From Gammaproteobacteria bacterium (GTDB lineage: Bacteria; Pseudomonadota; Gammaproteobacteria; JASBUN01): 64,000 bases of DNA. The position numbers were made by a program, and so were the translations under genes. The stretch lies in assembly GCA_030147845.1 (NCBI GenBank), contig JASBUN010000022.1, positions 6,152 to 70,151 of the forward strand, read 5' to 3'. Positions 2,235 to 63,495 of the stretch are shown piece by piece. Numbering within the stretch: position 1 is the first letter of the stretch; every line of letters begins with the position of its first letter. The notes beneath the pieces are model-generated. The model saw only the letters and a list, made by a program, of their open reading frames with translations, was not told the origin of the DNA and made no database searches.

Positions 2235-4205
2235 CTAACGTGGTGGTTTGATTCCGTATCGTTTCATTTTTCGATACAGGGTGTTCCGGCTCAGGCCGAG
2301 CTTGCGCGCCGCCTTGGCAATATTCCACCGTAAAGCTTCCAGTTCACGAAGTAGGGCCGTGCACTCGGCCATCGACAACGGGTCATCGAATGGCGTTTCC
2401 GGCTCAACTTGTTCAACCGTTTGTTCACTGGGCGCCGACAGAACGGTTGGTTGCTTTACCTCCGGCGGAAGATCGTCTACAGAAATGGCTTTACCGCCGC
2501 ACAAGGCGACCAGTGTCCTTAATATATTGCAGAGTTGCCGAATGTTGCCCGGCCAACTGTAGCGGGCAAGTATCTCCAAGGCTTCGTGGGTAATCGTCGC
2601 GTCGACATTGGCGCGATTTTGTTCCAACCAGAGCAATTTGGCGATGAGCTCGCGTTTATCGGTACGCGCTCGTAGCGCCGGCATGGTGATGCTCATTCCA
2701 TGCAAGCGGTAAAATAAATCTTCACGGAAGCGCCCGCTCTCCATTAATTCGGGCAAACTGCGGTGGGTGGCGCTTATGATGTTTACGTCGACTTTTTCAG
2801 GCGTTTCGCCACCAAGAGGTACGACTTCCTTTTCTTCCAGCACCCGCAATAATCGTGCTTGCAAAGCCAGCGGCATATCACCGATTTCGTCGAGAAACAG
2901 GCTTCCACCATTCGCCTGCGCAATTTTTCCTCGGCTACCTTTTCGGTTTGCGCCCGTAAATGCGCCAGGACGATAGCCAAACAGTTCACTTTCGATGAGC
3001 GATTCCGGAATGGAGGCGCAGTTCACAGCGATGAATGGCTTTCCTTGACGAACACTGCCATCGTGGAACGCTTTGGCAAATACGCCTTTGCCGGTACCCG
3101 TTTCGCCATATATGAGTAACGGGATATCCCGATCGGTGATCATGCGCGCGCGGCGGATATTTTCAGAAATTACGGCGTCGCTCGATTCCAAATGCTCGAA
3201 GCCGGCGCTTGTAGTGCGCTCGCGCTGCGGTCGTCCCTCGTCACTATCCCGCCTGGAGACCGGCGCGGGCGTTTTCAACGCGGCTTCCGGCAGTTGAACG
3301 ATACCGAAGAAGCGCCGGCCATCTTTGCTAGTGTGTATCGGCGTCGGATGGAAAGATTGACGTCGGCCGAGTGCGAGTAGTGCGTCGAGTGTGGTGTCGA
3401 ACACTTGGCTCAACGATTGACCCAGTACGTTGTCGCATTTGAGTCCGAGTTGGAACAGTGCGCTACGGTTGGCGCCAAGTACGTTGCCGGACCCGTCGAA
3501 CGCCAGCGCACCTTCGCCCAAGGTGCTAACAAATTCAGGCCGACTATGAAACCGCAGTATGAAGTCGTTTCGAAAGGCGCAAAGAAACAGGCGATTCTCG
3601 ATGGTCTGAGCCGACATGTTAACCAGTACCATCGTATGCTGCTGCGCCATACTGGACTCACTTGACGCATCTAATATCGCGATGGTCTTGCCGCGCGGAT
3701 CGACAATGGGCGCCGCCGAACACGTGAGGCCGGTATGCTGAGCGAGGAAGTGCGCCTCTTTGTGCACTACCAACGGTCTGCACTCGATTATGCAGGTTCC
3801 CATACCGTTGGTGCCTTGTGCCTCCTCGCTCCAGACCGCACCGTTTTGCAACCCGCTTCGGGCAGCGGCGTTGGTGAACAGTGGATCCCCTACATAGTTA
3901 AGTATCACGCCGTCCATGTCGGTAAGAAGAATGGCATAGCCGGAACCAGCCACTTGCTGGTAAAGACTGGTCATCTCATTCTTCGCCAATGCCAACAGGC
4001 GTGCCAAACGTTCTTGACGCTCATTGAGATCGGCGTGCGCGATGACGACCGGTTCGCGCCGGGCTAATGGGTCGAGTTGATAGTCGGCCGTACACCTTTG
4101 CCAGGATGTACGTACGGCGGGGTCCATTTGTGCAATTGCGTCTCGATTACCGGCTAGCACCGAATCGATTAACCGGATGTGTTCAGATGGCTGCGGATAT
4201 TGCAT
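2235..4205 (-). CDS. Sigma-54-dependent transcriptional activator, AcoR-like (N-terminal GAF-type sensor, AAA+ sigma-54 interaction domain, C-terminal Fis-type HTH)
   Basis: GETGTGKGVFAKAFH Walker A; ESELFGY...GAFTGA GAFTGA motif; C-terminal LSRNTLYRKMKRYGI HTH; 656 aa. Confidence 0.85.
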   Translation of the reverse strand: MQYPQPSEHIRLIDSVLAGNRDAIAQMDPAVRTSWQRCTADYQLDPLARREPVVIAHADLNERQERLARLLALAKNEMTSLYQQVAGSGYAILLTDMDGVILNYVGDPLFTNAAARSGLQNGAVWSEEAQGTNGMGTCIIECRPLVVHKEAHFLAQHTGLTCSAAPIVDPRGKTIAILDASSESSMAQQHTMVLVNMSAQTIENRLFLCAFRNDFILRFHSRPEFVSTLGEGALAFDGSGNVLGANRSALFQLGLKCDNVLGQSLSQVFDTTLDALLALGRRQSFHPTPIHTSKDGRRFFGIVQLPEAALKTPAPVSRRDSDEGRPQRERTTSAGFEHLESSDAVISENIRRARMITDRDIPLLIYGETGTGKGVFAKAFHDGSVRQGKPFIAVNCASIPESLIESELFGYRPGAFTGANRKGSRGKIAQANGGSLFLDEIGDMPLALQARLLRVLEEKEVVPLGGETPEKVDVNIISATHRSLPELMESGRFREDLFYRLHGMSITMPALRARTDKRELIAKLLWLEQNRANVDATITHEALEILARYSWPGNIRQLCNILRTLVALCGGKAISVDDLPPEVKQPTVLSAPSEQTVEQVEPETPFDDPLSMAECTALLRELEALRWNIAKAARKLGLSRNTLYRKMKRYGIKPPR

Positions 4206-5046
4206 AGGTCACCTAGTGCCGGACAGTAAAGAGGCAATCGAACGTTACCTTGTCAGGCGCGATTGCGCATTTATCGTTATGCGTTGGCGAAAAGGCTTCC
4301 TTGCAGCAACGCCGGCTAAATTCACGTGCAATATATAGGCCGAGTCTATGCTGGGGTGCTCGGGTCAGCGCACTACCAGCACGATAGGTGATCGGATCGC
4401 AAGCGAACCACTTGGTTCATCGGTTCCAACGTTCCGTCTCCTAGCCGCGCCCCCAATAAAACATACAAAAAACACGCTGTAAAGGAGCGGTTAATCGGTA
4501 GGCCTGCCGGCTTGTAAATTAATGTGTCAGTTTTGGCGCATTCCGGCTTATGTTGCCGTTACGGTCGCCAGTAAATTTTCGCACCGTCGTCCGTGATGCA
4601 CGGGGTCCGGGAGTTTCAGTCGGCGTTGGCCGTGCGTTGAACTCGAACGGGTAACGTGATCACCCGACTAGGCCAGCCAGCACGCGGTGCAGCAAAACCG
4701 TAACCGACTGTCGAGCCAGCTAGCATGCCGGTCGTATACCCGCATTGCGGTGCGTTGAGCGCGGCGAAATGAGGTTAGGTTTAGCGCGCTTACTGATCGA
4801 AACTCATTTTGTCAGTCGTGGTTAGCCGGTCGATGTCGTTACCAGTGGGTCTGCTACGGTGGGCGTGCCCATCACGCGCATCAGTATATAAGTACATTAA
4901 TGTATTGTCAGTTTTCGTACTGCTCGCGCTGCGCTTTTCGCCAGCATGGTGACGTCAATCGTGGCAACCGGAGTGCAATCGGCGGGCGTGTCGTACTTAT
5001 TTCCCGCTGTATCGATCGCACACTGTATCACCCAGGTGGCACTGTC

Positions 5047-5062
5047 GTTGCCGTTGTGCTGC
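5047..5062 (+). promoter_or_regulatory. Candidate sigma-54 (-24/-12) promoter TGGCAC-N5-TTGC
   Basis: TGGCACtgtcgTTGCC matches the GG-N10-GC spacing and the TGGCAC/TTGC consensus exactly. Lies about 370 bp upstream of the ABC operon start and divergent from the sigma-54 activator. Confidence 0.5.
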
Positions 5063-5217
5063 CGAGAAGAGACAGTTGAGTTCTCGTCCATTCCGCCGCA
5101 CCGGACGCGCGTTCGCGCAACAATGCATACCTATACCGACGGATCGTGCGTGTGCGGTACGTCAGGCGTGCAATGTGGATCAATTGTACGTTTAACATCG
5201 AAACCGTATTAACTCTT

Positions 5218-5233
5218 GGCACACCTCATGCAT
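5218..5233 (+). promoter_or_regulatory. Second candidate sigma-54 promoter (TGGCAC-N5-ATGCA)
   Basis: TGGCACacctcATGCA has correct GG-N10-GC spacing and a conserved -24 element, but ATGC instead of TTGC at -12. Lies about 195 bp upstream of 5427. Confidence 0.35.
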
Positions 5234-5426
5234 ACGCAGACCTAATACGAATTTTTCCGATGCACCGGATTGTCAGTCGCAAAGTAGGCACGCATTCGTT
5301 GTGTAGTCGATAAACGCGACGTGCGAGAAAAGCGAATCGGCACGTTAAAGGTGCGGCCAAAATTTTGGTCTCGTCCACGGTTTTGGATGAGGACGTAGTC
5401 GGCAGTCCGTCAGTTGGCCGCGGCAT

Positions 5427-6266
5427 TTGATTCGATCCGGAATTCAAAGAGCGACGTTTATGAATACAGTGGTGCGTAACGAAAAATATTGGCTCATGGC
5501 TGCCGGCTATATCGGCGCGATTTTTCTCTGGTACGCCAGCGTTAAGTGGTTACCAATAAGTTCGTTCAATAGACTTCCCGACCCGCTGTCGGTGATTCGC
5601 GAATGGCTTAGCCCGGACCCGAGCTACGGCATCTCCATTTTTACCAGCGACTACTACGTACATATTTGGTACAGCACCTATCGCGCCTTCACAGCATTTT
5701 TTCTCGCCGTTCTGCTCGGCGTTCCATTGGGAATCTTTATGGGGTGGAATGCGAAATTTCGTGAATTTTCCGGTGCCCTGGTGGGCTTGCTACGACCAAT
5801 ACCGCCCCTGGCATGGGTGCCTCTGGCTATTCTACTGTTTCCGGGTGTCGAGCCGGCGGTCATCTTCGTGACTTTTCTAGTGGCGTTCTTCGCCACCACG
5901 ATGAACACCCTGGTAGGCGTGAGATCCATCGACGAGGATTATTTCCGCGCTGCGCGTTGCCTTGGTGCCAGTCGGACCGACATCCTTCGTGACGTCATTG
6001 TCCCAGGAGCACTTCCGCATATTTTTACCGGTCTGCAAATCGCGATGGGAGCCGCGTGGTTCTCACTCGTCGCGGGCGAAATGATCGCTGCGCAATATGG
6101 GCTCGGATATGTGATTTGGGAAGCCTACAACTTGATCCAGTATCCAACTATTGTGATTGGCATGGCGACACTAGGGATTGTCGGATTTCTTAGCAGCGCT
6201 GCAATTCGATGGGTCGGTCAGCGGCTTATGCAGTGGCGTGAAGAATCGCTCGGCCTCGGAGGTTGA
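5427..6266 (+). CDS. ABC transporter permease, NitT/TauT family (nitrate/sulfonate/bicarbonate type), permease 1 of a hetero-oligomeric system
   Basis: Multi-TM protein with the conserved loop AARCLGASRTDILRDVIVPGALPHIFTGLQIAMGAAWFSLVAGEMIAA, typical of SsuC/TauC/NrtB-type permeases. Confidence 0.8.
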   Translation: MIRSGIQRATFMNTVVRNEKYWLMAAGYIGAIFLWYASVKWLPISSFNRLPDPLSVIREWLSPDPSYGISIFTSDYYVHIWYSTYRAFTAFFLAVLLGVPLGIFMGWNAKFREFSGALVGLLRPIPPLAWVPLAILLFPGVEPAVIFVTFLVAFFATTMNTLVGVRSIDEDYFRAARCLGASRTDILRDVIVPGALPHIFTGLQIAMGAAWFSLVAGEMIAAQYGLGYVIWEAYNLIQYPTIVIGMATLGIVGFLSSAAIRWVGQRLMQWREESLGLGG

Positions 6267-6270
6267 CGGC

Positions 6271-7155
6271 ATGGAACAGGTAATGAAGCGCGATCGGGGC
6301 TCGAACAATAGCGAGGGATTGGCGCCAAGACCCGAGTTCGGGAAACTGTCGATCCGGAACGCGGGAAAAACGTATGACCCACAGGGTTCGGCCGTCGTCG
6401 CCGTGCATGATTGCAGCATTGAGATAGAGGCCGGCGATTTTGTAGCGATTGTCGGCCCCTCGGGGTGTGGCAAGAGCACTTTAATGAATGTGCTTGCGGG
6501 ATTCGATAACGTCACGAGTGGCGAAGTGTATCTTGACGACTCCTTGCTTGCGTCTCCGCGACAAGCTCCAAGCCCAGGGGCAGATCGCGTCGTGGTGTTT
6601 CAAAACGGAGCTTTATTTCCTTGGAAAACGGTGCTTGAAAATGTCACCTATGGATTACTAAAGACGAACGCGATGAGCCGCGCTTCCGCCGAAGAGAAGG
6701 CGAAGGATTTTCTAAGCCGTTGCGGTGGGCTCGATAAGGTAATGCGCTCATACCCGGCACAACTTTCGTCCGGCATGCAGCGGCGTGTGGAAATTGTACG
6801 TGCCTTGGTCAACGAACCCAGAATCCTGCTATTGGATGAGCCGTTTCGTGCGATGGACACCATTTCAAAAACGACCATGCATCAGCACCTTCTGAAAATG
6901 TATAGCACATGCCGAAGAACGATCGTGTTTATCACACATGATTTGGAAGAGGCGATTTATTTGTCAGATAAAGTCATTGTCATGACGACTCGTCCGGGGA
7001 CGGTGAAGCTGGAGTTAACGGTTCCGTTGCCAAGGCCAAGGACGCCGGAGATGACGGCTTCGGTCGAATACATGGACCTAAAAAAAGAAGCAATAGAATC
7101 GGTGCATGAAGAAGCGAAAAAGGCGTTTGAACGTGGTGAGCGAGAATTGGCGTAA
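6271..7155 (+). CDS. ABC transporter ATP-binding protein, NitT/TauT family (ATPase 1)
   Basis: Walker A GPSGCGKST, signature LSSGMQRRV, Walker B LLLDEP. Start taken at the internal ATG at 6271 with a GGAGG RBS; the ORF-track start at 6178 would overlap the permease. Confidence 0.85.
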   Translation: MEQVMKRDRGSNNSEGLAPRPEFGKLSIRNAGKTYDPQGSAVVAVHDCSIEIEAGDFVAIVGPSGCGKSTLMNVLAGFDNVTSGEVYLDDSLLASPRQAPSPGADRVVVFQNGALFPWKTVLENVTYGLLKTNAMSRASAEEKAKDFLSRCGGLDKVMRSYPAQLSSGMQRRVEIVRALVNEPRILLLDEPFRAMDTISKTTMHQHLLKMYSTCRRTIVFITHDLEEAIYLSDKVIVMTTRPGTVKLELTVPLPRPRTPEMTASVEYMDLKKEAIESVHEEAKKAFERGERELA

Positions 7156-7166
7156 GGGGAGTTGAT

Positions 7167-8012
7167 ATGCCGGATGTGGAAGAATCCATCAGAGCCGCGC
7201 ATGCAGTGAAGTCGGAGCGCTCGACGAACAACACCAAGCGTGCGTTTCGGCTGAGAATTCCACGCATTCGATGGCGCGGCGCGCTTGCTATCGTTGGATT
7301 TTTTATTCTGTGGGATCTATTGGTACGTAACCAAGCCCCGGGGTTTGATTCGATTCCGTCGCCACTGGCTGTGATTCAGATATTTTTTAAGCAGTTTGCT
7401 TTCACGGCGACATATTGGCATTCGTGGTTTGTTAGTTTTCAGCGGGTAATGTATGGCTTCATCCTGGCGCAGCTTTTGGGCATCCCGTTGGGTTTGATTT
7501 TGGGAACACGAAAGAGAGTAAATTATCTACTGTTTCCGATTATCGAACTGCTCCGGCCGATCCCACCGTTAGCGTGGGTGCCGCTATCAATTTTGTTTTG
7601 GCCGACGAACGAACTGAGCATCGTCTTCATCACATTCATTGGCGCCTTCTTCATTATCGTCATCAATGTCTATGACGGCGTCAGAACGATAAGAAAAGAA
7701 CACTTCTGGTTGGCCCAATCGTTGGGTGCATCGCAGAGCACCATATTTCGTCGAATTATTATCCCATCCGTAATTCCCTCGATCGCGGTGGGCATGACGC
7801 TCGGAATAGCCGTGACCTGGAACGTTGTTATTGCAGCCGAAATGATCGCTAGCGATAGCGGACTGGGTCGTCTCACCTGGGAAGGCTATGTTAGCGGCTC
7901 GCCGTCGATCGTTGTCGTGGGCATGATCAGCATCGGCATAGCGGGATATCTCTCGACCATCATCGTTGATTACATTGAAAAGCGAATGATGCCTTGGAAA
8001 CAACTTTCGTAA
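7167..8012 (+). CDS. ABC transporter permease, NitT/TauT family (permease 2)
   Basis: Paralogous to the 5427 permease (LRPIPPLAWVPL, AQSLGAS..FRRIIIPS, AAEMIAS motifs); GGGGAG RBS. Confidence 0.8.
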   Translation: MPDVEESIRAAHAVKSERSTNNTKRAFRLRIPRIRWRGALAIVGFFILWDLLVRNQAPGFDSIPSPLAVIQIFFKQFAFTATYWHSWFVSFQRVMYGFILAQLLGIPLGLILGTRKRVNYLLFPIIELLRPIPPLAWVPLSILFWPTNELSIVFITFIGAFFIIVINVYDGVRTIRKEHFWLAQSLGASQSTIFRRIIIPSVIPSIAVGMTLGIAVTWNVVIAAEMIASDSGLGRLTWEGYVSGSPSIVVVGMISIGIAGYLSTIIVDYIEKRMMPWKQLS

Positions 8013-10539: not shown

Positions 10540-11061
10540 AGCGGCCGGAAGCGCTCAGATGACGCTCTTCCTCAAGCAATGTTCGTCGCCGGTGATTGTA
10601 AATCAAGCCAGTCCTGCACGCTTTAGATGTGCGTGTGTGGGGAGGCTGCCAGAGTGCTCTCCGCCCCAATCATGGACAAATCCTGATACTTCGCGCCGAT
10701 TGTTATAACGGCTCACGGCTGGCGTGCCCGGCGCTGGACAGTGGTGTCTCCGGAAAGTGTCCGTTCTTGTGACACACTGTTGCAACCGGCGAGCGCATCA
10801 CCCGGCTCGAGACCAAACGTGAGCGTAACTCCGGCGTGTTCCGAGCACGGTCGCGGTTTGCAACTACCGTCCGCGCTGGTGCGAGTAGCTCAATATGCGC
10901 TGCTGAACCGTTGTTTTTCCCGTATCTAACTGTTTTGATGAAAATAATGTAAGTGGCGCGGCCGGCTTATAGATCGTCTGTAGCGGCATACTCCGATTTT
11001 ACTCCCCTGCTCACCGAGATAAGCTTCCGGTTGTCGAAATGCTTGTCCCATCGCATACCGG

Positions 11062-11077
11062 TGGCACGACATTTGCT
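11062..11077 (+). promoter_or_regulatory. Candidate sigma-54 promoter TGGCACG-N4-TTGCT (perfect consensus)
   Basis: GGTGGCACGACATTTGCTCT has canonical -24 TGGCACG and -12 TTGC with correct spacing. Intergenic, about 400 nt upstream of the secreted DsrE-like gene. Confidence 0.5.
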
Positions 11078-11476
11078 CTGTTGACTGGAGGACGGTGCGG
11101 ACGACTTTCGCAACGTTATGGTGCCGCTCCGACAGGGCATCTGGAAAAATGGAAGCTATTTACATAAATGGCCTCCGAAATGATTGGTTTACCGAGCAGC
11201 AATAAGACTGAGCACGACTATGTGCAATCATCGTTGCTTTTTCGTTCGCAGACTTCGCAGGTCTTAGGGTCGGCGGTGCATTACACGGCACGTCCCAACT
11301 GCGACGCACTTTGATACGCAACTTAGTTTATCGATGCATGAATATACGTTGCATGACTCGATACGTGGAGAACGACTGGAAAGGGATAGCGTGTACGTAG
11401 AGGATGGCTGTTCATGCGTGATGCATTGGCGGCTTTTTCGCAAATTATAAATTTAGAACATCGGGAGGAGATCCAC

Positions 11477-33401: not shown

Positions 33402-36400
33402 TTATTGTACCGGCCGGCGAAGCCACACGCGCAGCAACGCTAGCAGCTGCGCAACATCAATGGGCTTTGCCATGTAGTCAGATGCACCCGCTTCAATGCA
33501 CTTTTCCCTGTCGCCCTTCATGGCCTTGGCGGTGATTGCGATCATCGGTAGATGTTCAAAGTTGTCCAGCGAGCGAATGGCCCGCATGGTATCGTAGCCA
33601 TCCATATCGGGCATCATCACGTCCATTAGTACGACATCGATGCTAGGATTGCTTTTAAGCATAGTGACGGCGTCGTTGCCGTTTTCCGCGTATACCACTT
33701 CCATTTCCTGCTCTTCCAGTACACAGGTCAGCGAAAAAATGTTGCGTATGTCATCGTCGACGATGAGCGCTTTTTTCCCGGATAGCACGTGGTCGGTATG
33801 ACTGAGTTGCCTGATCATATCCTGCTTATCCGGGAGCATTTTGCTTACCGGGACGTGCATGAGGAGAGCAGTCTCACTGACCAGCCGCGCCGGAGAGCTG
33901 GCGTCCTTGGTGATCACCGATTCAGCGTGGTCCCACAAAGCGCTTCGGTCGGCCTGGTTTAACTCCTTTGCCGTGTAGATGATCATCGGCACCGATTTCA
34001 ACTTCTTATTTTCGCGTAGCGCCTTTAGTAGCTCCAGCCCGTCCATATCCGGTAAGGTAAGATCGATCACAATACAATCGTAGCTTTTTGTTCGCAGTGC
34101 TTGAATGGCGTCCGCGGCGGTTCCTACTCCTTCGGCGACCGTTTGATTAGCAGTTAACAAGGAACTGAGGTATTCGCGTTGAATATCTTGATCTTCAATG
34201 ATCAAAATCCGCCGCTCGGCGCGCTCGTAAAGCGCTTTTAGATTTTTGAGTATACTAGCAATCTCCGCTTTACCAGCCTTTTTCCGAGTGCATCCCGCAG
34301 CGCCTTTCATGAGGCCACGCGGAATGTTGGTACGAGTGGAAATCATCTGCACGGGAATGTGCCTCTTTGCCAGATCGTGCTTGAAAAGATCGAGCACGGC
34401 CCAGCCGTCCATGTCGCTGATGCTTGAGTTGAGAAAAATTGCCGATATCACGTACTTGGCGGACAGCGACAGGGCTGCGGTACCGGTCCATGCGATAAGG
34501 ACTTTCATGCCGAGCGTATGAGCTATAGTTCGGACCTTTTCACAAAATTCTTTATCGCCATCGATAATAAGAAGAACGGTGTCGCCATCACGCAGCGAGG
34601 TACGGTCGTCTGCCGGTATGTCGTCGTGTTCGATGCGAAGCTCCGGTGCCTCGACCGTTTCTTCTATGACGATGTCACGGGCGGACGAAAATGCCGATTG
34701 CACGTCTACGTGCGTACTATTTCCCGTAATCAATGGCAAAAACAATGTGAAGGTGCTCCCTTGATTAGGCGCGCTGGTTACGGTCAGCTCACCACCCAGT
34801 CGGCGTGCGATCTCTCGGCTAATGGACAGTCCAAGCCCGGTACCGCCGTATTTACGGCTGGTGGTGCCATCGGCCTGCTGAAAGGCTTCAAAGATAATCA
34901 TTTGTTTGTCGGCCCGAATGCCGATACCGGTGTCCGATACCGCAAATGCAACGATCGAATCGGCCGATTTCAGAATTTCATTGTCTGCGGACCAACCATG
35001 CGATGCCAATTCCATACGCAGACTGACGGAGCCTTTTTCGGTAAATTTGAAGGCGTTGGAAAGCAGATTTTTAAATATTTGCTGTAGTCGTTTGGCGTCG
35101 GTCTGGATTGTAGGCGGCAAGCGATTGTCGATCTTGATGGAAAAATCGAGTTGCTTGTCATGAGCGAGTTGCCGAAAGGTGCGCTCGACATAGTCGCGCA
35201 TGTCTTCGAAGCGTTCATTGCCCATTTCCAGCGTAAACGTGCCCGACTCGATTTTGGAAAGATCAAGAATGTCGTTGATCAGTGCCAGTAGATCTGATCC
35301 GGCCGAATGGATCGTCTTGGCAAATTCCACTTGCTTGGGTTGCAAATTGTTGGCCGGGTTGTCGGAAAGCAGGCGCGCCAAGATCAGCAAACTGTTTAAG
35401 GGAGTCCGAAGTTCGTGCGACATATTGGCCAAAAATTCGGATTTGTACTTGGAAGCCAGCGCCAGCTGCTCGGCTTTTTCTTCCAACGCAACCTTGGCCA
35501 GTTCGACCTCGCGGTTTTTCAACTCCACCTGTGCTTTCTGTTCAGATAGCAGACGGGCTTTCTCTTCCAGCTCGCTATTGGTCGTTTGCAACTCTTCCTG
35601 TTGCGCCTTTAACAATTCCTCCGACTTACGAAGATTTTCGGCTTGCTGTTCCAGCCGATCATTCGTGTTTTTGAGCTCCTGCTGCTGACTTTGCAGTTCC
35701 GCCGTGAGCGACTGCGATTGTGTAAGAAGATCCTCCGTACGCATATTGGCTTCGATGGTATTCAATACGATGCCAATACTCTCCATGAGTTGGTCGAGAA
35801 ATGATTGATGGGTTTCGCTGAAGGCGCCAAACGAGGCCAGTTCGATTACAGCTTTTACTTCGCCTTCAAACAGCACCGGCATGACAATAATATTGCGCGG
35901 CGTGCTTTCACCGAGACCGGAGTGGATCTTGACGTAGTCGCTCGGCACCTTATCCATGAAAACACGTTTCTTTTCGTAGGCGCACTGACCGATAAGTCCT
36001 TCTCCGAGCTGAAAGCGATTCGGAACCGCATTCTTGCCCTTATAGGCATAGGAGGCCTGCAATTCCAGCGCCGCTTCTTTGCCATAGACTTTAGTGATAT
36101 AGAATACGCCGTGCTGTGCGTTCACCAACGGTGCGAGTTCCGATAGCACCAAGCGGCAGACGGTCAGCAGGTCGCGCTGTCCCTGCAGCATTTTGGTAAA
36201 TTTGGCGACGTTCGTCTTGAGCCAATCCTGTTCGGTATTTTTTAACGTCGTTTCGCGCAGGTTACTGATCATCTCGTTGATGTTGTCTTTCAACGAGGCG
36301 ACTTCACCGGAGGCCTGTACGGTGATGGAACGCGTCAAGTCGCCCTTGGTCACCGCAGTGGCGACTTCGGCGATGGCGCGAACCTGTGTGGTGAGGTTGG

Positions 36401-38966
36401 CGGCAAGCTGATTGACGTTGTCGGTCAGGTCGCGCCACAGGCCAGCGGCGCCCGGCACCTTGGCTTGTCCGCCGAGTTTTCCTTCGATACCGACTTCACG
36501 CGCGACGTTGGTTACCTGGTCTGCAAACGTCGCTAGCGTATCGATCATGCCGTTGATCGTGTCGGCCAGGGCGGCGATCTCGCCTTTCGCTTCCACCGCC
36601 AACTTGCGCTTCAAGTCACCATTGGCCACGGCGGTCACGACGTCGGCGATGCGTCGTACTTGGTTGGTCAAGTTGGCGGCCATGGAGTTTACGTTGTCGG
36701 TCAGATCTTTCCAGATGCCGCCGACACCGAGAACGTTGGCTTGGCCGCCGAGCTTGCCTTCGGTGCCGACCTCGCGCGCCATGCGCGTAACTTCCGAGGC
36801 GAACGACCCGAGCTGATCGACCATGGTGTTGATGGTGTTCTTGAGCTCCAGAATTTCGCCCTTTACGTCCACCGTGATTTTTTTGGAGAGATCGCCGCGC
36901 GCCACTGCCGTGGTTACGTCGGCTATATTGCGCACCTGTCCGGTCAGGTTGCTGGCCATGGCGTTGACGTTGTCGGTTAAATCTTTCCATGTGCCTGCGA
37001 CGCCACGCACTTGCGCCTGTCCGCCGAGCTTGCCTTCGGTGCCGACTTCACGCGCGACACGTGTCACTTCCGAAGCAAACGAGTTGAGCTGATCGACCAT
37101 GGTGTTGATGGTGCTCTTCAGCTCCAGAATTTCGCCCTTTACATCCACTGTGATTTTTTTGGAGAGGTCACCGCGCGCTACCGCCGTGGTCACTTCGGCG
37201 ATGTTACGCACCTGACCGGTCAGATTTCCGGCCATGGAGTTGACGTTATCAGTGAGGTCCTCCCAGATCCCATCCACGCCGGGAACGTTGGCCTGTCCAC
37301 CCAATTTGCCTTCGGTGCCGACTTCGCGCGCTACGCGTGTGACCTCCGAGGCGAACGAATTGAGCTGGTCCACCATCGTATTGATGGTGTTTTTCAATTC
37401 CAGGATTTCACCTTGGACATCGACCGTGATTTTCTTCGATAAATCGCCACGCGCCACGGCGGTGGTTACATCAGCGATGTTGCGCACTTGGCCGGTAAGG
37501 TTGCGCGCCATGGCGTTAACGTTATCGGTCAGGTCCTTCCACGTCCCGGCGACGCCACGCACCTCCGCCTGTCCGCCGAGCTTGCCGTCGGTACCCACTT
37601 CGCGCGCAACACGCGAGACTTCAGACGCGAATGAGCTGAGCTGATCCACCATCGTATTGATGGTATTTTTTAGCTCCAGAATTTCGCCTTTCACGTCTAC
37701 CGTGATTTTTTTTGATAAATCGCCGCGTGCCACGGCGGTGGTCACATCGGCGATGTTACGTACCTGACCGGTGAGGTTGCCGGCCATGGAATTGACGTTA
37801 TCGGTCAGGTCTTTCCAGGTGCCGCCGACGCCGGCGACGTTGGCTTGGCCACCGAGTTTGCCCTCCGTGCCGACTTCGCGCGCAACGCGCGTGACTTCCG
37901 AGGCGAAGGAATTGAGCTGGTCGACCATCGTGTTGATGGTGTTCTTCAATTCGAGAATTTCGCCTTTGACGTTGACGGTGATTTTTTTCGACAGATCGCC
38001 GCGCGCCACGGCGGTGGTCACATCGGCGATGTTACGCACCTGCGATGTCAGATTGGCGGCCATCGAGTTGACATTGTCGGTAAGGTCTTTCCAGATGCCG
38101 CCCACGCCGCGCACGTCGGCTTGGCCGCCGAGTTTGCCTTCGGTGCCGACTTCGCGCGCGACGCGCGTGACTTCCGAGGCGAACGAGCCGAGCTGGTCGA
38201 CCATCGTATTAATGGTGCTTTTCAACTCCAGAATTTCGCCTTTGACGTCGACCGTGATTTTCTTCGACAAATCGCCGCGCGCCACCGCAGTGGTGACCTC
38301 GGCGATATTGCGCACTTGATCACGCAGATTGGCGGCCATCAAATTTACGCTGTCGGTGAGATCCTTCCAGGTGCCGGCCACACCCTTGACCTTGGCTTGC
38401 CCGCCGAGCTTACCTTCGGTACCGACTTCGCGCGCGACGCGGATGGTTTCCGTAGTGAAGGAGTTGAGCTGATCAGCCATGGCATTGACCACTTTGCCGA
38501 TGCGCAGAAACTCACCTTGGAGTGGATAGCCGTCGATTTCCAGTTGCATGCGCTGACTCAGGTCACCCTTGGCCACCGCGCCGATAACGCGCGACATTTC
38601 ACTGGTCGGTTTGACCATGTCGCTGATGAGGTTGTTGATGGAATCGATGCCATCGGCCCATGCGCCGGTGACGTTACCGATGCGCGCGCGCTGTGAGATC
38701 ATGCCCTGCTTGCCGACCACGAGGCTGACGCGCGCCAGCTCTTTGCCCATCATATCGTTGAGTTCGACGACATCGTTGAAGGCGTCCGCCAGTTCCTGGC
38801 CCAGAGCGGAGTCGGTACTCGGCATATGGACCGAGAAGTCGCCGCGCTTGAGTGCTTTGAGCGCTCTGAGTAACTGGCGGGCGTGGTTTGCATCGACGCC
38901 GGCTGATTCGCTGAAATGCGTTGCCAACTCGGCCTGGGCGGTGGCACTCAGGTCTTCTCGTGTCAT
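33402..38966 (-). CDS. Giant soluble hybrid sensor histidine kinase: poly-HAMP array (about 10 HAMP-like units including eight 92-aa tandem repeats) - GAF - coiled coil - HisKA - HATPase_c - three receiver domains
   Basis: 1854 aa with no TM segment. Eightfold repeat [18 protein letters not shown]...[59 protein letters not shown] domain ([13 protein letters not shown]). H-box [12 protein letters not shown]. HATPase VSDTGIGI...[22 protein letters not shown] domains ([10 protein letters not shown]..., [10 protein letters not shown]... and one degenerate). Confidence 0.85.
36190..38440 (-). repeat. About eight tandem 276-bp (92-codon) repeats inside the giant kinase CDS, roughly 85-90% nucleotide identity by eye
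   Basis: Recurrent DNA blocks such as GAGCTGATCGACCATGGTGTTGATGGTG...CAGAATTTCGCCCTTTAC...GTGATTTTTTTGGAGAG/CGACA. This also produces long antisense ORFs in the track (for example 36412..38696 +). Confidence 0.8.
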
Positions 38967-39249: not shown

Positions 39250-39319
39250 TTTTTTGCCGAGGGACCCGCCCATCCAAGTGTATGTTTTTTGCCGAGGGAC
39301 CCGCCCATCCAAGTGTATG
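39250..39319. repeat. Perfect 35-bp tandem direct duplication TTTTTTGCCGAGGGACCCGCCCATCCAAGTGTATG x2 in a divergent promoter region
   Basis: Exact repeat read directly, between the giant kinase start (38966, minus) and the uup start (39474, plus). Confidence 0.9.
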
Positions 39320-39473: not shown

Positions 39474-41366
39474 ATGCCTGTCATCTCCCTCGAAAATGTG
39501 TCTATGGCCTACGGCCACGTGGCTTTGCTCGACGCCGTGTCGCTGCAACTGGAAGCCGGTGAGCGCGTCTGTCTGGTGGGCTGCAATGGCACCGGCAAAT
39601 CGACCTTGATGCGTGTGCTGAGCGGTGCCGTGCTGGCCGATGACGGTAGCGTCTGGCGGCAGCCGGGCATTCGGGTCGCGCACTTGGAGCAGGAGGTGCC
39701 GGTTGACGAGCAGCGCTCGGTGTTCGATGTAGTCGCAGAAGGGCTGGGAAATTTGGCTGCGCATATCTCTGCCTATCACCGCACCACGGTCGAACTTGAG
39801 CGCGAACCGTCGGATGAGCTGGTACAGCAGTTGGCGCATTTGCAGATGGCGCTCGAAGCCGAAGACGGTTGGCGTTTGCAGCAACGCGTGGAAACGGTGC
39901 TTACGAAGTTGGGATTGCCGGCCGATCAAACGGTGTGTTCGTTGTCAGGTGGCGCCAAACGTCGAGTCCTGATGGCGCGCGCGTTAGTGGTCGAGCCGGA
40001 GCTTTTGTTGCTCGATGAGCCGACCAATCACCTCGACATCGATACGATCCAGTGGCTCGAAGAGGTACTGCTCGCCTATTCGGGCGCGTTGCTGTTTATC
40101 ACCCATGATCGGGCGTTTCTACAGCGCTTGGCCACCCGTATCGTTGAATTGGACAGGGGGTCGTTGACTTCGTGGCCCGGCGATTATGAGCGCTATATCG
40201 CCCTACGCCAGGAGCGGCTGGAGGTCGAGGCGCAGCACCGGGCTAAATTTGAAAAAAAGCTGGCTCAAGAAGAGACCTGGATCCGTCAGGGGATCAAGGC
40301 GCGCCGTACGCGCAACGAAGGTCGTGTGCGTGCTTTGGAGGCGTTACGCCAGGAGCATGCGCGACGCCGCGAGCTGCGCGGCAACGCGCGCTTGTCACTG
40401 GACCGTGGTGATACATCCGGCAAATTAGTGCTGGAAGCGGAGCACGTTAGCTTTGGCTATGAAGGTGCGACCATAGTTAAGGATTTTTCGACGCGCATCT
40501 TGCGCGGCGATCGGGTCGGCGTCATAGGGCCGAACGGCTGCGGCAAAAGCACGCTTATCAAGCTGTTATTGCAACGATTGGCGCCCGATGCCGGAGCGGT
40601 GCAACACGGTAGTCGACTCGATGTGGCCTTCTTCGATCAGGAGCGCGCCCAGCTCGATTTGAACAAATCCGTAGTCGACAACATTGGCGCCGGCAGTGAC
40701 ACGGTAACAATCAACGGACAATCAAAGCACGTCATGAGTTATCTGCGTGATTTTCTGTTTCCGGCTGAACGTGCGCAATCGCCGGCGCGCTCGTTGTCGG
40801 GCGGCGAACGAAATCGCCTGTTGCTGGCGCGGCTATTTACGCGCCCGGCCAACCTTCTGGTGCTGGACGAGCCGACCAATGATCTCGACATGGAAACGCT
40901 CGAACTGCTGGAGGAACTGTTGGCTGACTACGACGGTACGCTGATATTGATCAGTCATGATCGGCGCTTTCTCGACAATGTCGTGACCAGCACGCTGGCA
41001 TTCGAGGGCGAGGGCCGTTTCGTCGAATATGTCGGTGGTTATCGCGATTGGCTGCGCCAACGTCAGCCTCTACCTGCTGACGCGCCGCAGATACCCCGGA
41101 ATGCTCATTCAAATGCGCCGCCGCCGGCGCCGCCCGCGCCCAAGCCACGTAAACTCAGCTACCGCGAACAGCGTGAACTCGATGCGCTGCCGCGCGCCAT
41201 CGAGCAACTGGAAGCAGAACAGTCGGCCTTGCAGGCGCGTATCGCAGAGCCGCAATTTTACCGCGGCGCCGCCGCCGACGTCGCCACCGCCGTGCAGCGC
41301 CTGGAGGAGCTTGGGCAGCAACTGCAGCGCTCCTACGATCGTTGGCAAGAGCTTGATGAACGCTAG
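39474..41366 (+). CDS. uup: ABC-F family ATPase Uup (two ABC domains plus C-terminal coiled-coil domain)
   Basis: Two Walker A sites (GCNGTGKST, GPNGCGKST), two signatures (LSGGAKRRV, LSGGERNRLLLARL), the WIRQGIKARRTRNEGRVRAL inter-domain linker typical of Uup; 630 aa. Confidence 0.85.
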   Translation: MPVISLENVSMAYGHVALLDAVSLQLEAGERVCLVGCNGTGKSTLMRVLSGAVLADDGSVWRQPGIRVAHLEQEVPVDEQRSVFDVVAEGLGNLAAHISAYHRTTVELEREPSDELVQQLAHLQMALEAEDGWRLQQRVETVLTKLGLPADQTVCSLSGGAKRRVLMARALVVEPELLLLDEPTNHLDIDTIQWLEEVLLAYSGALLFITHDRAFLQRLATRIVELDRGSLTSWPGDYERYIALRQERLEVEAQHRAKFEKKLAQEETWIRQGIKARRTRNEGRVRALEALRQEHARRRELRGNARLSLDRGDTSGKLVLEAEHVSFGYEGATIVKDFSTRILRGDRVGVIGPNGCGKSTLIKLLLQRLAPDAGAVQHGSRLDVAFFDQERAQLDLNKSVVDNIGAGSDTVTINGQSKHVMSYLRDFLFPAERAQSPARSLSGGERNRLLLARLFTRPANLLVLDEPTNDLDMETLELLEELLADYDGTLILISHDRRFLDNVVTSTLAFEGEGRFVEYVGGYRDWLRQRQPLPADAPQIPRNAHSNAPPPAPPAPKPRKLSYREQRELDALPRAIEQLEAEQSALQARIAEPQFYRGAAADVATAVQRLEELGQQLQRSYDRWQELDER

Positions 41367-44148: not shown

Positions 44149-44239
<91 letters not shown>

Positions 44240-44443: not shown

Positions 44444-44564
<121 letters not shown>

Positions 44565-47510: not shown

Positions 47511-47837
47511 ATGGAAATAGGCTCGCTCCCCACATTGGTGTCACCGCGCCCCGCGACCACGCGCTCGGGAGTCGGCGGCGTGCGCGCGTCGTCCGCACAA
47601 ACCAACAATGGGCCGGTCCTGCACGGTGAGCTGCTGCGGCGCGAACGCCAGCAGGGCGAGCAGTTCAACGCCAAAGCAGAGGTGATAAAAGCGCGCCGGC
47701 GCGACGATCACCCGGCTTTTCAGCGCCGTCATGATAACCCTAATTACACCCAGCGACTCGCCATGCAAGCCTACCAAGCGCACACCTCAATAGCGCAGCA
47801 AGGCAACGCCCGCGGGCGCGTCGACTATTTCGCATAG
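47511..47837 (+). CDS. Hypothetical small protein (about 108 aa), no recognisable domain
   Basis: Gene-like GC3-rich codon usage in an otherwise unassigned 570-bp gap between recR and the HIT gene; start uncertain. Confidence 0.25.
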   Translation: MEIGSLPTLVSPRPATTRSGVGGVRASSAQTNNGPVLHGELLRRERQQGEQFNAKAEVIKARRRDDHPAFQRRHDNPNYTQRLAMQAYQAHTSIAQQGNARGRVDYFA

Positions 47838-47954: not shown

Positions 47955-48299
47955 ATGAACGATTGTGTTTTTTGTCGCATGGTCAGCGGCGAGATTAAAC
48001 CCGACATCGTCTACGAAGACGAATGGGTATTGGCCTTCCGCGATCTTAATCCGAAGGCGCCGACGCACGTACTGGTCGTTCCGCGCGAGCATATTGCCAC
48101 CCTCAATGATCTGGAACAGAAACACGCGGAGCTGGTTGGGCGCATGTATTTGGCCGCGAAGTACGTCGCCGAACAGGATAACATCGCCGAGCCTGGTTAT
48201 CGGACGGTTATCAACTGTAACGCCGAGGCCGGTCAAAGCGTATATCACTTACATCTGCATGTGCTCGGCGGACGTACCATGACATGGCCGCCGGGCTGA
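47955..48299 (+). CDS. HIT-family (histidine triad, Hint-like) nucleotide hydrolase
   Basis: HLHLHVLGG histidine triad, N-terminal CVFCRMVSGEI; AGGAG RBS before the ATG at 47955. Confidence 0.85.
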   Translation: MNDCVFCRMVSGEIKPDIVYEDEWVLAFRDLNPKAPTHVLVVPREHIATLNDLEQKHAELVGRMYLAAKYVAEQDNIAEPGYRTVINCNAEAGQSVYHLHLHVLGGRTMTWPPG

Positions 48300-48317: not shown

Positions 48318-48950
48318 TGCGTGCATGGGTTTGGTTCATCCATACATGGCCGAAAACGCATAAAGCCGATGTTTTCTTTGCGAGCTTGGCGGCTTTGCGA
48401 GAGATTAAGGTTTGGTCAACACAAATGATGCTCTCGCAAAGACGCGGAGCCCGCCAAGGTGAATTAGGTCGCCTCATGTCGTGACTTCCGAATGATGCAC
48501 GGATGAATCCGTGCCTACAAAATCAAGCGGCCGTGCATGACACCTCCAGCCGAAGAAATCCCCACCTTGTAGGCACGGCTTCAGCCGTGCACGGGTCTGC
48601 TTTGGTCCAGCCATGCATCGTTGAAAACACATAAAACTGTCCCTTCTTTGCGCGCTTGGCGGCTTGGCGAGAGATTAAGGTTTGGTCAACACGAGGTGAT
48701 GCTCTCGCACAGACGCGGAGCCCGCCAAGGTGAATTAGGTCGCCTCATGTCGTGACTTTCGAATGATGCACGGATGAATCCGTGCCTACAAGATAGGCGG
48801 CGATATTCAAACGCATCTGCCGCGCTCGAGCGTGTTCATTTTGATTTTGTAGGCACGGTTTTAACCGTGCATGGGTTTGGTCCAGCCATGCATCGTTGAA
48901 AACGCATAAAACTGTCCCTTCTTTGCGCGCTCGGCGGCTTTGCGACAGGT
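48318..48950. repeat. Cluster of about 2.5 composite intergenic repeats (about 200-230 bp units) containing GTAG-headed REP-like hairpins (GCACGG-loop-CCGTGC)
   Basis: Unit ...GAAAAC(A/G)CATAAAACTGTCCCTTCTTTGCGCGCTTGGCGGCTTGGCGAGAGATTAAGGTTTGGTCAACAC...GATGCTCTCGCA...GCCAAGGTGAATTAGGTCGCCTCATGTCGTGACTT.CGAATGATGCACGGATGAATCCGTGCCTACA is repeated at 48318-48510 and 48567-48791 and partially at 48847-48950; related to repeats at 62990-63495. Confidence 0.85.
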
Positions 48951-49048: not shown

Positions 49049-50134
49049 TTACGAAAAAATATCTTTGGTTTCTTCTTTTACGGCTTCCATGATGAGCTGG
49101 TAGCTCTGTAAGCGATGGCGGTCTACTTGTCCGGCCGCTACCGCTTCGAGCAGGGAACAGCCTGGTTCCATGCTGTGCGTGCAGTTGCTGAATTTGCAAG
49201 TGCCGAGAAACGGGCGAAACTCGATAAAGCCGTGGGCGATACGCTCGGCTTCGATGTGCCAAACGCCGAAGTCCCGCACGCCGGGTGAGTCGATCAGTTG
49301 GCCGCCCGACGGCAACTGGTATAAAGCCGACGTGGTGGTTGTATGGCGCCCCCGCTGGGCTTTCGACAGCGCGCCGACACGCACATCTTCATGCGGCAGA
49401 AGTGCCTGCACCAGCGATGACTTCCCAACGCCGGACTGACCCACCAGAATGCTGGTGCGGTCGTTGAGTTGTTGGCGTAAATCATCCAGCCCATGTTCCA
49501 CTTTGACACTGGTGAGCAGAACACGATAACCAATATCGCGGTAAGCTTGCAGGTGTTTGGTGAGTCCGGTGTTGGCCTGGGAGCCGAGTAAATCGGTTTT
49601 ATTGATGACGATTACCGGTGTGATGCCAATGCTCTCGGCGGTCAACACGTAGCGGTCGATCAGCTGTCTGCCCGGCAACGGTTCGCCGGTAGCGACAATG
49701 ACGATCTGATCGATGTTGGCCGCCACCGCCTTCTGTTGTCTGCCCGCGTCAGGGCGTGAGAGTAGGGTCTTGCGCGCCAGCACCGCTACCACTACACCAT
49801 CTTCGCCGCCGCTCGCTTGCCACACCACACGGTCACCGCACACCAGCGCGCCGAGATTCTGTCTGCTCACACAGCGAACGATTTCGCCATCGTCGCTGCG
49901 TATGTCAGCGCTGTTTCCGTAACGGCATATCACCCGACCGTGGCGTTCGGCACCGAGGGATTCAGCTTGCTGGGGTTGCGGGTCATGGCTGGCGTCGCGC
50001 GCACGCGTGGCACGCGCGTTCTGCCGTTGTTTAATTCGCCCCCGCTGCTGGTCGCTAAGCCTACGGTTGCTCATCGGCACGGCAGGCAAGTTTGGTGCGG
50101 CAATGGCGCGGGCGTTGCGTTTGGCTCGGTTCAT
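49049..50134 (-). CDS. rsgA: Ribosome small-subunit-dependent GTPase A (RsgA/YjeQ)
   Basis: GQSGVGKSSL G1 motif, circularly permuted GTPase (VINKTDLL precedes G1), C-terminal zinc knuckle CKFSNCTHSMEPGC. Confidence 0.85.
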   Translation of the reverse strand: MNRAKRNARAIAAPNLPAVPMSNRRLSDQQRGRIKQRQNARATRARDASHDPQPQQAESLGAERHGRVICRYGNSADIRSDDGEIVRCVSRQNLGALVCGDRVVWQASGGEDGVVVAVLARKTLLSRPDAGRQQKAVAANIDQIVIVATGEPLPGRQLIDRYVLTAESIGITPVIVINKTDLLGSQANTGLTKHLQAYRDIGYRVLLTSVKVEHGLDDLRQQLNDRTSILVGQSGVGKSSLVQALLPHEDVRVGALSKAQRGRHTTTTSALYQLPSGGQLIDSPGVRDFGVWHIEAERIAHGFIEFRPFLGTCKFSNCTHSMEPGCSLLEAVAAGQVDRHRLQSYQLIMEAVKEETKDIFS

Positions 50135-62989: not shown

Positions 62990-63495
62990 TGTAGGCACGG
63001 ATGAATCCGTGCCTACAAAACCCTGCCACAATCGGCCACGTACCGTATGGTGTTGTAGGCACGGCTGAAAACGCATGCGGCCGATGTTTCTGTTGCGTGC
63101 TCGGCGTCTTGGCGAGAGCCAGCGAGTTAGCCAAATTGCATGAAACTCTCGCCAAGGCGCAAAGCACGCCACGAAGAATAGATTCCTGATGTTGCGACTT
63201 TGAGTGAGGCACGGATGAATCCGTGCCTACAAAACCCTGCCACAATCGGTCACGTACCGTATGGTGTTGTAGGCACGGCTTTAGCCGTGCATCGGTGTCC
63301 GGTGTGGCAACCGACGCATGGCTGAAAACGCATAAGGCCGATGTTTCCTTTGCGTGCTCGGCGTCTTGGCGATAGCTTGGGAGTTAGTCAATTGCATGAA
63401 ACTCTCGCCAAGGCGCTAAGCACGCCAAGAAGAATAGATCCGTCATGTTGTGACTTTGAGTGAGGCACGGATGAATCCGGGCCTACGAAACTGCT
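62990..63495. repeat. Two tandem about 240-bp composite repeats with GTAG-headed REP-like hairpins, same family as 48318-48950
   Basis: Perfect hairpins TGTAGGCACGGATGAATCCGTGCCTACA at 62991 and 63207 and a degenerate one at 63457; shared module GAAAACGCAT..GGCCGATGTTTC.TTTGCGTGCTCGGCGTCTTGGCGA.AG...CTCTCGCCAAGGCGC.AAGCACGCCA.GAAGAATAGAT. Confidence 0.85.

Follow-up and report, generated by a model that had tools for sequence, protein, structure and literature searches.

The repeat array between the convergent HIT and rsgA genes of this uncultured gammaproteobacterium is an ordinary bacterial selfish or structural repeat of the REP/BIME/REPIN class. Judged by its sequence, it is a true mosaic of GTAG-tagged REPs and a second family of hairpins built from heptads, in which the boundaries of the mobile unit would be set either by the REPs or by the two arms of the heptad hairpin (A' and A). 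We consider it probable that the whole is a non-coding REP/BIME-type mosaic of these two families, spread by a RAYT and growing by recombination.

The array, hereafter cluster 1, occupies positions 48320–48946 of the window (the whole 64-kb stretch of DNA analysed) and sits in a 750-bp gap, beginning 20 nt past the HIT stop and ending 102 nt short of the rsgA stop. The repeat units noticed in the preliminary description are real, the REP pattern GTAGGCACGG-N(3–8)-CCGTGC having 8 matches in the 64-kb window against 0.00 expected from shuffled sequences, but their size, given there as 200–230 bp, is not: a repeat search returned direct-repeat families 270–275 bp apart, and the array holds about 2.3 units with a period of 271–275 bp. 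The same search found inverted repeats pairing the REP-like hairpins of cluster 1 with one another. Each unit has four parts, namely a REP (REP5'), a polar module that we call X, an inverted REP (REP3') and a variable linker of 50–59 nt. Together, REP5'-X-REP3' make up a conserved block of about 225 bp. X and the REPs are 93–97% identical between the units of cluster 1, and its two linkers (50 and 59 nt) are essentially unrelated in sequence. The first copy lacks most of its REP5'. TRF did not report the 271–275-bp array, probably because the linkers are non-homologous and the copies carry indels. The locus is laid out as follows:

47955–48299, + strand: HIT-family gene, left flank (Pfam HIT/DcpS_C, E 2e-28; 114 aa, also called on Logan contigs)
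48320–48496, + strand: X copy 1, opening in the REP5' tail CGTGCATGGG; central hairpin at 48374–48459
48497–48518, - strand: REP3' #1, reading GCACGGATGAATCCGTGCCTAC on the + strand, with GTAG on the - strand
48519–48568, no strand: linker 1, on the GTAG side (TT spacer), containing the decayed REP5' tail GGCCGTGCATGA
48569–48590, + strand: REP5' #1, GTAGGCACGGCTTCAGCCGTGC
48591–48767, + strand: X copy 2, complete, 177 nt
48768–48789, - strand: REP3' #2
48790–48848, no strand: linker 2, with a weak terminator-like hairpin and T-run at 48821–48834
48849–48870, + strand: REP5' #2, GTAGGCACGGTTTTAACCGTGC
48871–48946, + strand: X copy 3, stopping exactly where hairpin arm A ends
49049–50134, - strand: rsgA, right flank, convergent with HIT (Pfam RsgA_GTPase, E 2e-53)

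Complete units carry a GTAG hairpin at each end, the two being inverted and of distinct subtypes; the hairpin that ends the unit had been recognised beforehand, but as a feature of one end only. REP5' has the form GTAGGCACGG-N6-CCGTGC with the loops CTTCAG, TTTTAA or CTTTAG, and the loop of REP3' is ATGAAT (ATAAAT in the MAG BWSM_144, see below). The stem, GCACGG/CCGTGC, extends into the loop to give 7–8 bp with a 4-nt loop, and single REPs fold with an MFE of -11 to -14 kcal/mol (z -2.7 to -4.7). GTAG stands beside the stem in all nine REPs of the window, which fall into two clusters. In size, stem, loop and unpaired GTAG these hairpins agree with the GTAG-type REPs defined in PMC3733652, palindromes of 20–40 bp with stems of 5–13 bp and a short loop.

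The arrangement of the two subtypes is strict: REP5' is always found at the 5' end of X and REP3' at its 3' end, GTAG faces away from X, and this polarity relative to X holds in both genomes, that of the window and that of BWSM_144. In the nomenclature of PMC3733652, the REP5'-X-REP3' pair (GTAG outside, 163–177 nt apart) is an HH heterodimer and the REP3'-linker-REP5' pair (GTAG inside, 36–59 nt apart), which folds as one hairpin of -42 kcal/mol, is a TT dimer. HH dimers tend towards conserved spacers and TT dimers towards variable ones (PMC3733652), a pattern that cluster 1 follows. Both genomes show REP5' and REP3' alternating with X and short linkers, in keeping with the tandem organisation of BIMEs, and both clusters of the window are extragenic, cluster 1 between convergent genes and cluster 2 between co-directional ones.

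The X module is polar, 163–177 nt long, and has as its core a long imperfect hairpin, each arm of which consists of three CTTKGCG heptads plus GAGAG. The internal inverted repeat that had been described in each unit was recovered by the repeat search at 48376–48403 / 48431–48458 (28 nt, 82% complementary), and the arm pattern TTGCGNGCTNGGCGNCTTNGCGA has 9 matches at up to 3 mismatches in the window against 0.04 expected. Folded as RNA, the hairpin at 48374–48459 reaches an MFE of -42.3 kcal/mol (z -5.7), and the whole REP5'-X-REP3' block around X copy 2 reaches -90.3 kcal/mol (z -3.5). Whole units form nested palindromes on either strand (z -3.5 and -5.0). Binding of IHF, DNA gyrase or Pol I marks the BIMEs of E. 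coli; inspection by eye of the X loop revealed no convincing WATCAANNNNTTR site. X had no match among plasmids, phages or E. coli genomes, and we found no mention of the heptad arm sequences in the literature; one pattern match in a viral contig was rejected as a chance match within coding DNA. The preliminary description had missed that the internal hairpin is a repeat family of its own, occurring without REPs in a distant relative (contig L128).

The copies downstream of HIT are not the only ones, a possibility that the preliminary description had left standing. A second cluster at 62991–63486, some 14 kb from the first and of equal architecture, is flanked by two genes of the - strand, one with a DUF4129 and the other with an ABM domain:

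62991–63016, no strand: fully palindromic REP with ATGAAT loop, GTAG tag on both strands
63017–63054, no strand: 38-nt GTAG-side linker, recurring at 63231–63268 with one mismatch; homologues in MAG BWSM_144
63055–63208, + strand: truncated REP5' (63055–63066) fused to X copy 1, of X subtype 2; hairpin at 63089–63175
63209–63230, - strand: REP3'
63231–63268, no strand: GTAG-side linker, repeat of 63017–63054
63269–63290, + strand: REP5', loop CTTTAG
63291–63464, + strand: X copy 2, complete
63465–63486, - strand: REP3', one mismatch

The X copies of this cluster are only 66–73% identical to those of cluster 1, and the stem differences between the two are compensatory (TTTGCGAGAG/CTCTCGCAAA in cluster 1 becoming TTGGCGAGAG/CTCTCGCCAA in cluster 2); the hairpin at 63089–63175 has an MFE of -49.8 kcal/mol (z -7.4).

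When GTDB species representatives were scanned with the 22-nt REP3', REP5'-X-REP3' clusters also came to light in the MAG Gammaproteobacteria bacterium BWSM_144, at two positions of contig JASBSR010000006.1 and in both orientations. One of them (L003) adjoins a large ORF, a putative clpB, and the copies of this genome include truncated and internally deleted ones. Cluster 1 copies are 81–83% identical to one BWSM_144 copy and thus closer to it than to cluster 2 of the window (66–73%), which points to X subfamilies common to both genomes and placed in differing gene contexts. The identity across the two genomes may reflect vertical descent, transfer or selection. The window and BWSM_144 had no genes in common in the blocks compared (15 kb of the MAG), and their tetranucleotide signatures were too noisy. 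With blastn and nhmmer over about 125 REP-seeded loci, X was found, among the matches listed, only in the source organism's own contigs and in BWSM_144; it may be more widespread than these REP-seeded matches. The GTAG tags, the alternating orientation, the extragenic position, the second locus and the occurrence in another genome bear out the REP-like, BIME/REPIN-like mosaic that was first suggested.

The REPs themselves reach further. At least 120 metagenomic loci match GTAGGCACGG-N6-CCGTGC; many of these matches are single and may be due to chance. A recurrent form there is a compact TT heterodimer in which a REP with an ATAAAT-type loop is followed, after 5–24 nt, by a REP with a TTTYAA loop, that is, the two REP subtypes of the window in matching order and without X. 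On one metagenome contig from another organism (L109), three such REPs immediately precede an ORF with an HFH motif, whose match to Pfam Y1_Tnp (IS200-like; E 2e-7) exceeds the gathering score. By sequence and position, this contig ties the REP family to a putative RAYT-type gene in that organism. Two other loci, L111 and L067, proved to be false leads in the search for a RAYT. No RAYT/Y1 transposase ORF was detected in the 64-kb window or in 15 kb of BWSM_144 by an HUH/Y-motif regular expression and by phmmer with the Y1_Tnp of L097 as query.

The mechanism that we propose draws on what is known of RAYT/TnpA-REP and of REPINs (PMC3733652, PMC3116915). A RAYT (IS200-like Y1/HUH), acting in trans, would recognise GTAG together with the stem, and REP dimers would spread as single-stranded hairpin DNA that is cut and rejoined, by analogy with TnpA-REP of E. 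coli. Arrays would then enlarge by tandem duplication including flanks, as in the clusters of SBW25 (PMC3116915), and would be homogenised through unequal crossing-over and gene conversion. Local duplication, more than transposition, could account for the clustering of copies. REPs are known to favour convergent and unidirectional gene ends (PMC3733652); as a by-product, the stable stem-loops at the ends of the HIT and rsgA transcripts would probably stall 3' exonucleases and hinder read-through. Two observations speak against such a role, namely that no U-tract follows the big hairpins and that the X copies of cluster 2 are antisense to the genes on either side.

The history of the HIT-rsgA site can be followed in relatives at several distances. 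The closest RsgA homologues outside the source organism and its genus are 56–58% identical, and distant relatives keep the order glcDEF - RNase T gene - M48 protease gene - rsgA, convergent with HIT - recR - ybaB - dnaX. The gap between rsgA and HIT measures 18 nt in three contigs of such relatives (L131–L133), which makes the 750-nt gap of the window look like inserted DNA; it measures 188 nt in a further contig, L128, where it holds a different palindromic element. In a relative of 88–93% identity (Logan SRR24974063/64), homology to the window ends at 48327, beyond which come about 90 unrelated nt, then TTTTGTAGGCACGGTTTTAACCGTGC, and then the end of the contig. Its REP5' downstream of HIT equals REP5' #2 of the window, with the matching GATTTT flank, and the left junction differs; the presence of TTTTGTAGGCACGGTTTTAACCGTGC indicates that there, too, a REP array lies downstream of HIT and opens with a complete REP5'. 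The truncation of this REP5' in the window is probably the result of a deletion that joined two look-alike sequences, GCGTGCATG in unique DNA and CCGTGCATGGG in the REP tail.

Strains of about 98% identity (samples SRR13206479 and SRR13206476) keep both outer junctions of the window array, including the right junction at the end of arm A. Their array copies are chimeric between window copies 1 and 3, and one copy bears an 18-nt deletion between heptads in arm A; chimeras and deletion together point to unequal exchange or gene conversion inside the array. All the Logan contigs retrieved for this locus that extend into the HIT-rsgA gap break off within the repeats.

A somewhat unlikely alternative, though one with several observations in its favour, is a MITE that has the heptad arms as its terminal inverted repeats, is moved by an unknown transposase and merely carries a REP dimer inside. 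The unit would then read A' - 3' flank - REP3' - linker - REP5' - 5' flank - A, and the 27–28-nt "loops" of the X hairpins would be junctions of tandem elements. So delimited, the units 48431–48674 and 48703–48946 are both exactly 244 nt long, A' pairs with A when such a unit is folded as single-stranded DNA, and cluster 1 ends where arm A ends, in the window as well as in the 98% strain. Contig L128 holds, at 3460–3620, an element of about 150 bp without a REP (TCTCGCGCAAAGACGCAAAGGCGCCAAG + a core of about 75 nt + CTTGGCGTCTTTGCGCGAGA), bounded by arms in the "inside-out" order of A' then A, and an A'-like arm occurs in its rsgA-HIT gap too. Moreover, elsewhere the GTAG-inside REP dimer is the compact basic unit, and REP dimers inside longer palindromes have been documented (PMC3733652). 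Against a MITE, cluster 2 on both sides and locus L005 of BWSM_144 on its left are bounded by REP ends and not by arm ends, and cluster 1 appears to have begun, in its ancestral state, with a complete REP5'. Inverted termini exist whichever way the unit is delimited, but no copy shows a target-site duplication or flanking direct repeat. The 27–28-nt junctions are near-identical in cluster 1 and conserved in BWSM_144, which would be odd for target DNA, and the REP-free example is known only from L128. Since X arms occur without REPs in L128, X may have a history and a mobiliser of its own within the REP/BIME-type mosaic.

Could X instead specify a structured RNA under selection, as an sRNA or as an element of a 3'-UTR, with the REPs serving as processing or termination hairpins? 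The fixed polarity of X would suit such a role, as would the motifs GAAAACGCAT and CTCTCGC, nearly or fully invariant in the seven copies, several G-U pairs that favour the hairpin on the X-sense strand, and the fact that X follows two genes in sense orientation, HIT in the window and the putative clpB in L003. RNAalifold on the seven X copies keeps the central hairpin, with 6 predicted pairs changed on both sides; for the hairpin alone, 90.5% of cells are paired and four pairs show double changes, a value barely above that of shuffled sequences (38 of 500 reach it). This covariation is weak and fits a DNA or an RNA hairpin alike, and the opposite strand folds about equally well. Rfam 15 gave no match at the gathering score, and at E up to 10 only chance-level miRNA/snoRNA hits (E ≥2). 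Cluster 1 contains no sigma-70-like promoter, the big hairpins are not followed by a U-tract, and the + strand has only two terminator-like sites, a weak one inside linker 2 and another that precedes the HIT gene. Furthermore, both genes next to cluster 2 run antisense to its X copies, X lies upstream of a divergent gene in L005, and many copies are truncated, internally deleted or chimeric, as in decaying repeats. An RNA role is therefore distinctly unlikely in our view; without an Rfam match or promoter-like site, with inconsistent orientation to neighbours and weak covariation, the structured small RNAs first entertained find little to recommend them.

Equally improbable is that X is a functional, lineage-restricted device coupled to REP dimers, REP5'-X-REP3' being a REPIN class of about 225 bp under selection. 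The heptad arms could then be iteron-like protein sites, or X a structured RNA or single-stranded DNA cofactor of the RAYT, and such a device, if real, would explain why X is 81–83% identical between genomes and 66–73% between clusters of one genome.

Purely local tandem duplication of unique intergenic DNA, with no repeat family involved, is highly improbable. Copies within a cluster are indeed the most alike (88–89%), and the linker of cluster 2 has been duplicated almost perfectly. However, in cluster 1 modules of 93–97% identity flank linkers that are essentially unrelated, the REP family is widespread in metagenomes, and the second cluster 14 kb away and the homologous clusters elsewhere in BWSM_144 refute the idea. 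Finally, we give practically no credence to units that encode small proteins or form a CRISPR-like or integron attC array: ORFs of 52–88 aa do overlap the units and repeats do alternate with variable spacers, but six-frame translation showed no frame open across the seven X copies, which refutes a coding role, an X-derived 53-aa ORF has no relatives among 5.8 billion proteins, the repeats (about 225 bp, alternating in orientation) are unlike those of CRISPRs, no GTTRRRY/RYYYAAC core sites were seen by eye in the cluster 1 sequence, and the roughly 30 larger ORFs of the window that were scanned against Pfam include neither an integrase nor a cas gene.

The locus adds a REP/BIME system from a gammaproteobacterial lineage that has been poorly sampled, and in it REP dimers and a second family of hairpin repeats have been fused to form tandem units of about 270 bp. 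Such arrays break short-read assemblies, and tools that limit REPIN spacing to 130 bp would miss the conserved REP5'-X-REP3' pair. The locus alters no current concept; it is a case study of array dynamics, with junction change, gene conversion and deletion between strains.

Among known systems, the BIMEs of E. coli, especially BIME-2 with its Y and Z2 REPs, likewise have two GTAG REP subtypes alternating in orientation, two alternating classes of extra-REP linkers, an extragenic position and tandem reiteration at gene ends. The array differs in sequence, having no match in 5,426 E. coli genomes (sensitive blastn, 11-nt words), and in that one of its linker classes is 163–177 nt long with a 29-bp-arm hairpin of its own, whereas the linker motifs of E. 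coli BIMEs are only tens of bp long. ERIC/IRU and the Correia elements of Neisseria are also imperfect palindromes of 100–250 bp, intergenic and probably folding in transcripts, whose presence at a given site varies among relatives. To our knowledge neither family carries GTAG REPs as tags; Correia elements duplicate a TA, and in the array no target duplication is seen. PATEs, the non-autonomous derivatives of IS200/IS605, resemble it as polar elements with a hairpin at each end, no target duplication and a presumed Y1/HUH mobiliser working on single-stranded DNA; their two end hairpins, however, have the same handedness on one strand where those of the array are inverted, and no tnpA or tnpB remnants were detected.

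The GTAG-15 type of A. variabilis (Di Nocera et al. 2013, PMC3733652) shares with the array REP dimers tied to a second, longer palindrome, spacers that are conserved with GTAG outside and variable with GTAG inside, and a preference for convergent gene ends. It differs in the REP stem sequence and in the CTTKGCG heptad palindrome and tandem arrays found here. In P. fluorescens SBW25, REPINs are inverted REP pairs that form nested hairpins and occur as tandem, near-identical units including flanks, with a RAYT as presumed mobiliser; ordered tandem REPIN/REP arrays with two alternating spacings of 112 and 72 bp have been described there (Bertels & Rainey 2011, PMC3116915). The GTAG-inside pair of the array (36–59 nt) lies within the limit of about 130 bp and forms one hairpin, as REPINs do, whereas the GTAG-outside pair, at 163–177 nt, lies beyond the 130-bp RAREFAN limit and exceeds the 20–100 bp reported for REP dimers (PMC3733652), and its X spacer is polar, not symmetric as in classical REPINs. 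In its GTAG tags, size, alternating subtypes, extragenic position and inverted dimers, the array has the structure of a BIME/REPIN.

In a distant relative that retains the gene order (contig L128, GCA_975964935.1), the gap between rsgA and the HIT gene is filled by a different palindromic element, CCACAGAGATCACAGAGGCCACAGAGAAAA followed by its inverted copy (7018-7205). The same contig carries, between glcF-like and RNase T genes (3460-3620), a heptad-arm hairpin without REPs that is related to the arms of X, the module separating REP5' and REP3' in the window. Hairpin repeats seem to land repeatedly at convergent gene ends. Two further intergenic gaps of unusual length, at window 4206-4945 (about 740 nt) and 10540-11413 (about 875 nt), are both also found in an 89% identical relative, and neither contains a copy of REP or of X.

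Other features of the window, with their coordinates, are as follows.

33402-38966, minus strand: hybrid histidine kinase of 1854 aa, with nine HAMP domains, GAF, HisKA/HATPase and three receiver domains
44149-44236: long-arm tRNA, upstream of dnaX
44456-44552: small SRP RNA, upstream of dnaX
47511-47837: conserved hypothetical ORF of 108 aa, between recR and the HIT gene

The kinase ORF includes a coding tandem repeat of 276 bp (6.6 copies according to TRF, 36666-38488), which corresponds to its poly-HAMP array. The gap on the upstream side of the ABC-F ATPase gene (39474-41366) holds a perfect tandem duplication of the 35-bp unit TTTTTTGCCGAGGGACCCGCCCATCCAAGTGTATG (two copies, 39250-39319). 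The tRNA and the SRP RNA keep 92-94% identity even where the RsgA proteins of the relatives are only 56% identical. The 108-aa ORF had no match in Pfam; at its position an unannotated gene of 108-111 aa is called in close strains, and a putative counterpart of this size is called at the equivalent position in three contigs of distant relatives (L131-L133).

The 22-nt REP3', ATGAAT loop included, recurs as one exact copy each in two MAG sequences, L002 (6501-6533) and L004 (3346-3371), from MAGs labeled Brocadiaceae and Zixiibacteriota. Coincidence, contaminated bins or a very broad distribution of the REP could each account for their presence there.

REPs were also found beside Y1 transposase genes in metagenome contigs. 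In Ga0315314_1000293 (6064-6620), a tandem series of four REPs from another GTAG family (GGGCGAGCAAGCTCGCCCCTAC type) flanks a Y1_Tnp gene. The other contig, Ga0066637_10013701, carries at 4958-5268 three GTAGGCAC-type REPs immediately 5' of a partial IS200-like Y1 transposase ORF of the RAYT type, which matches Pfam Y1_Tnp above threshold. This locus looks like a REPtron of the GTAGGCAC-type REP family, in an AT-rich host organism.
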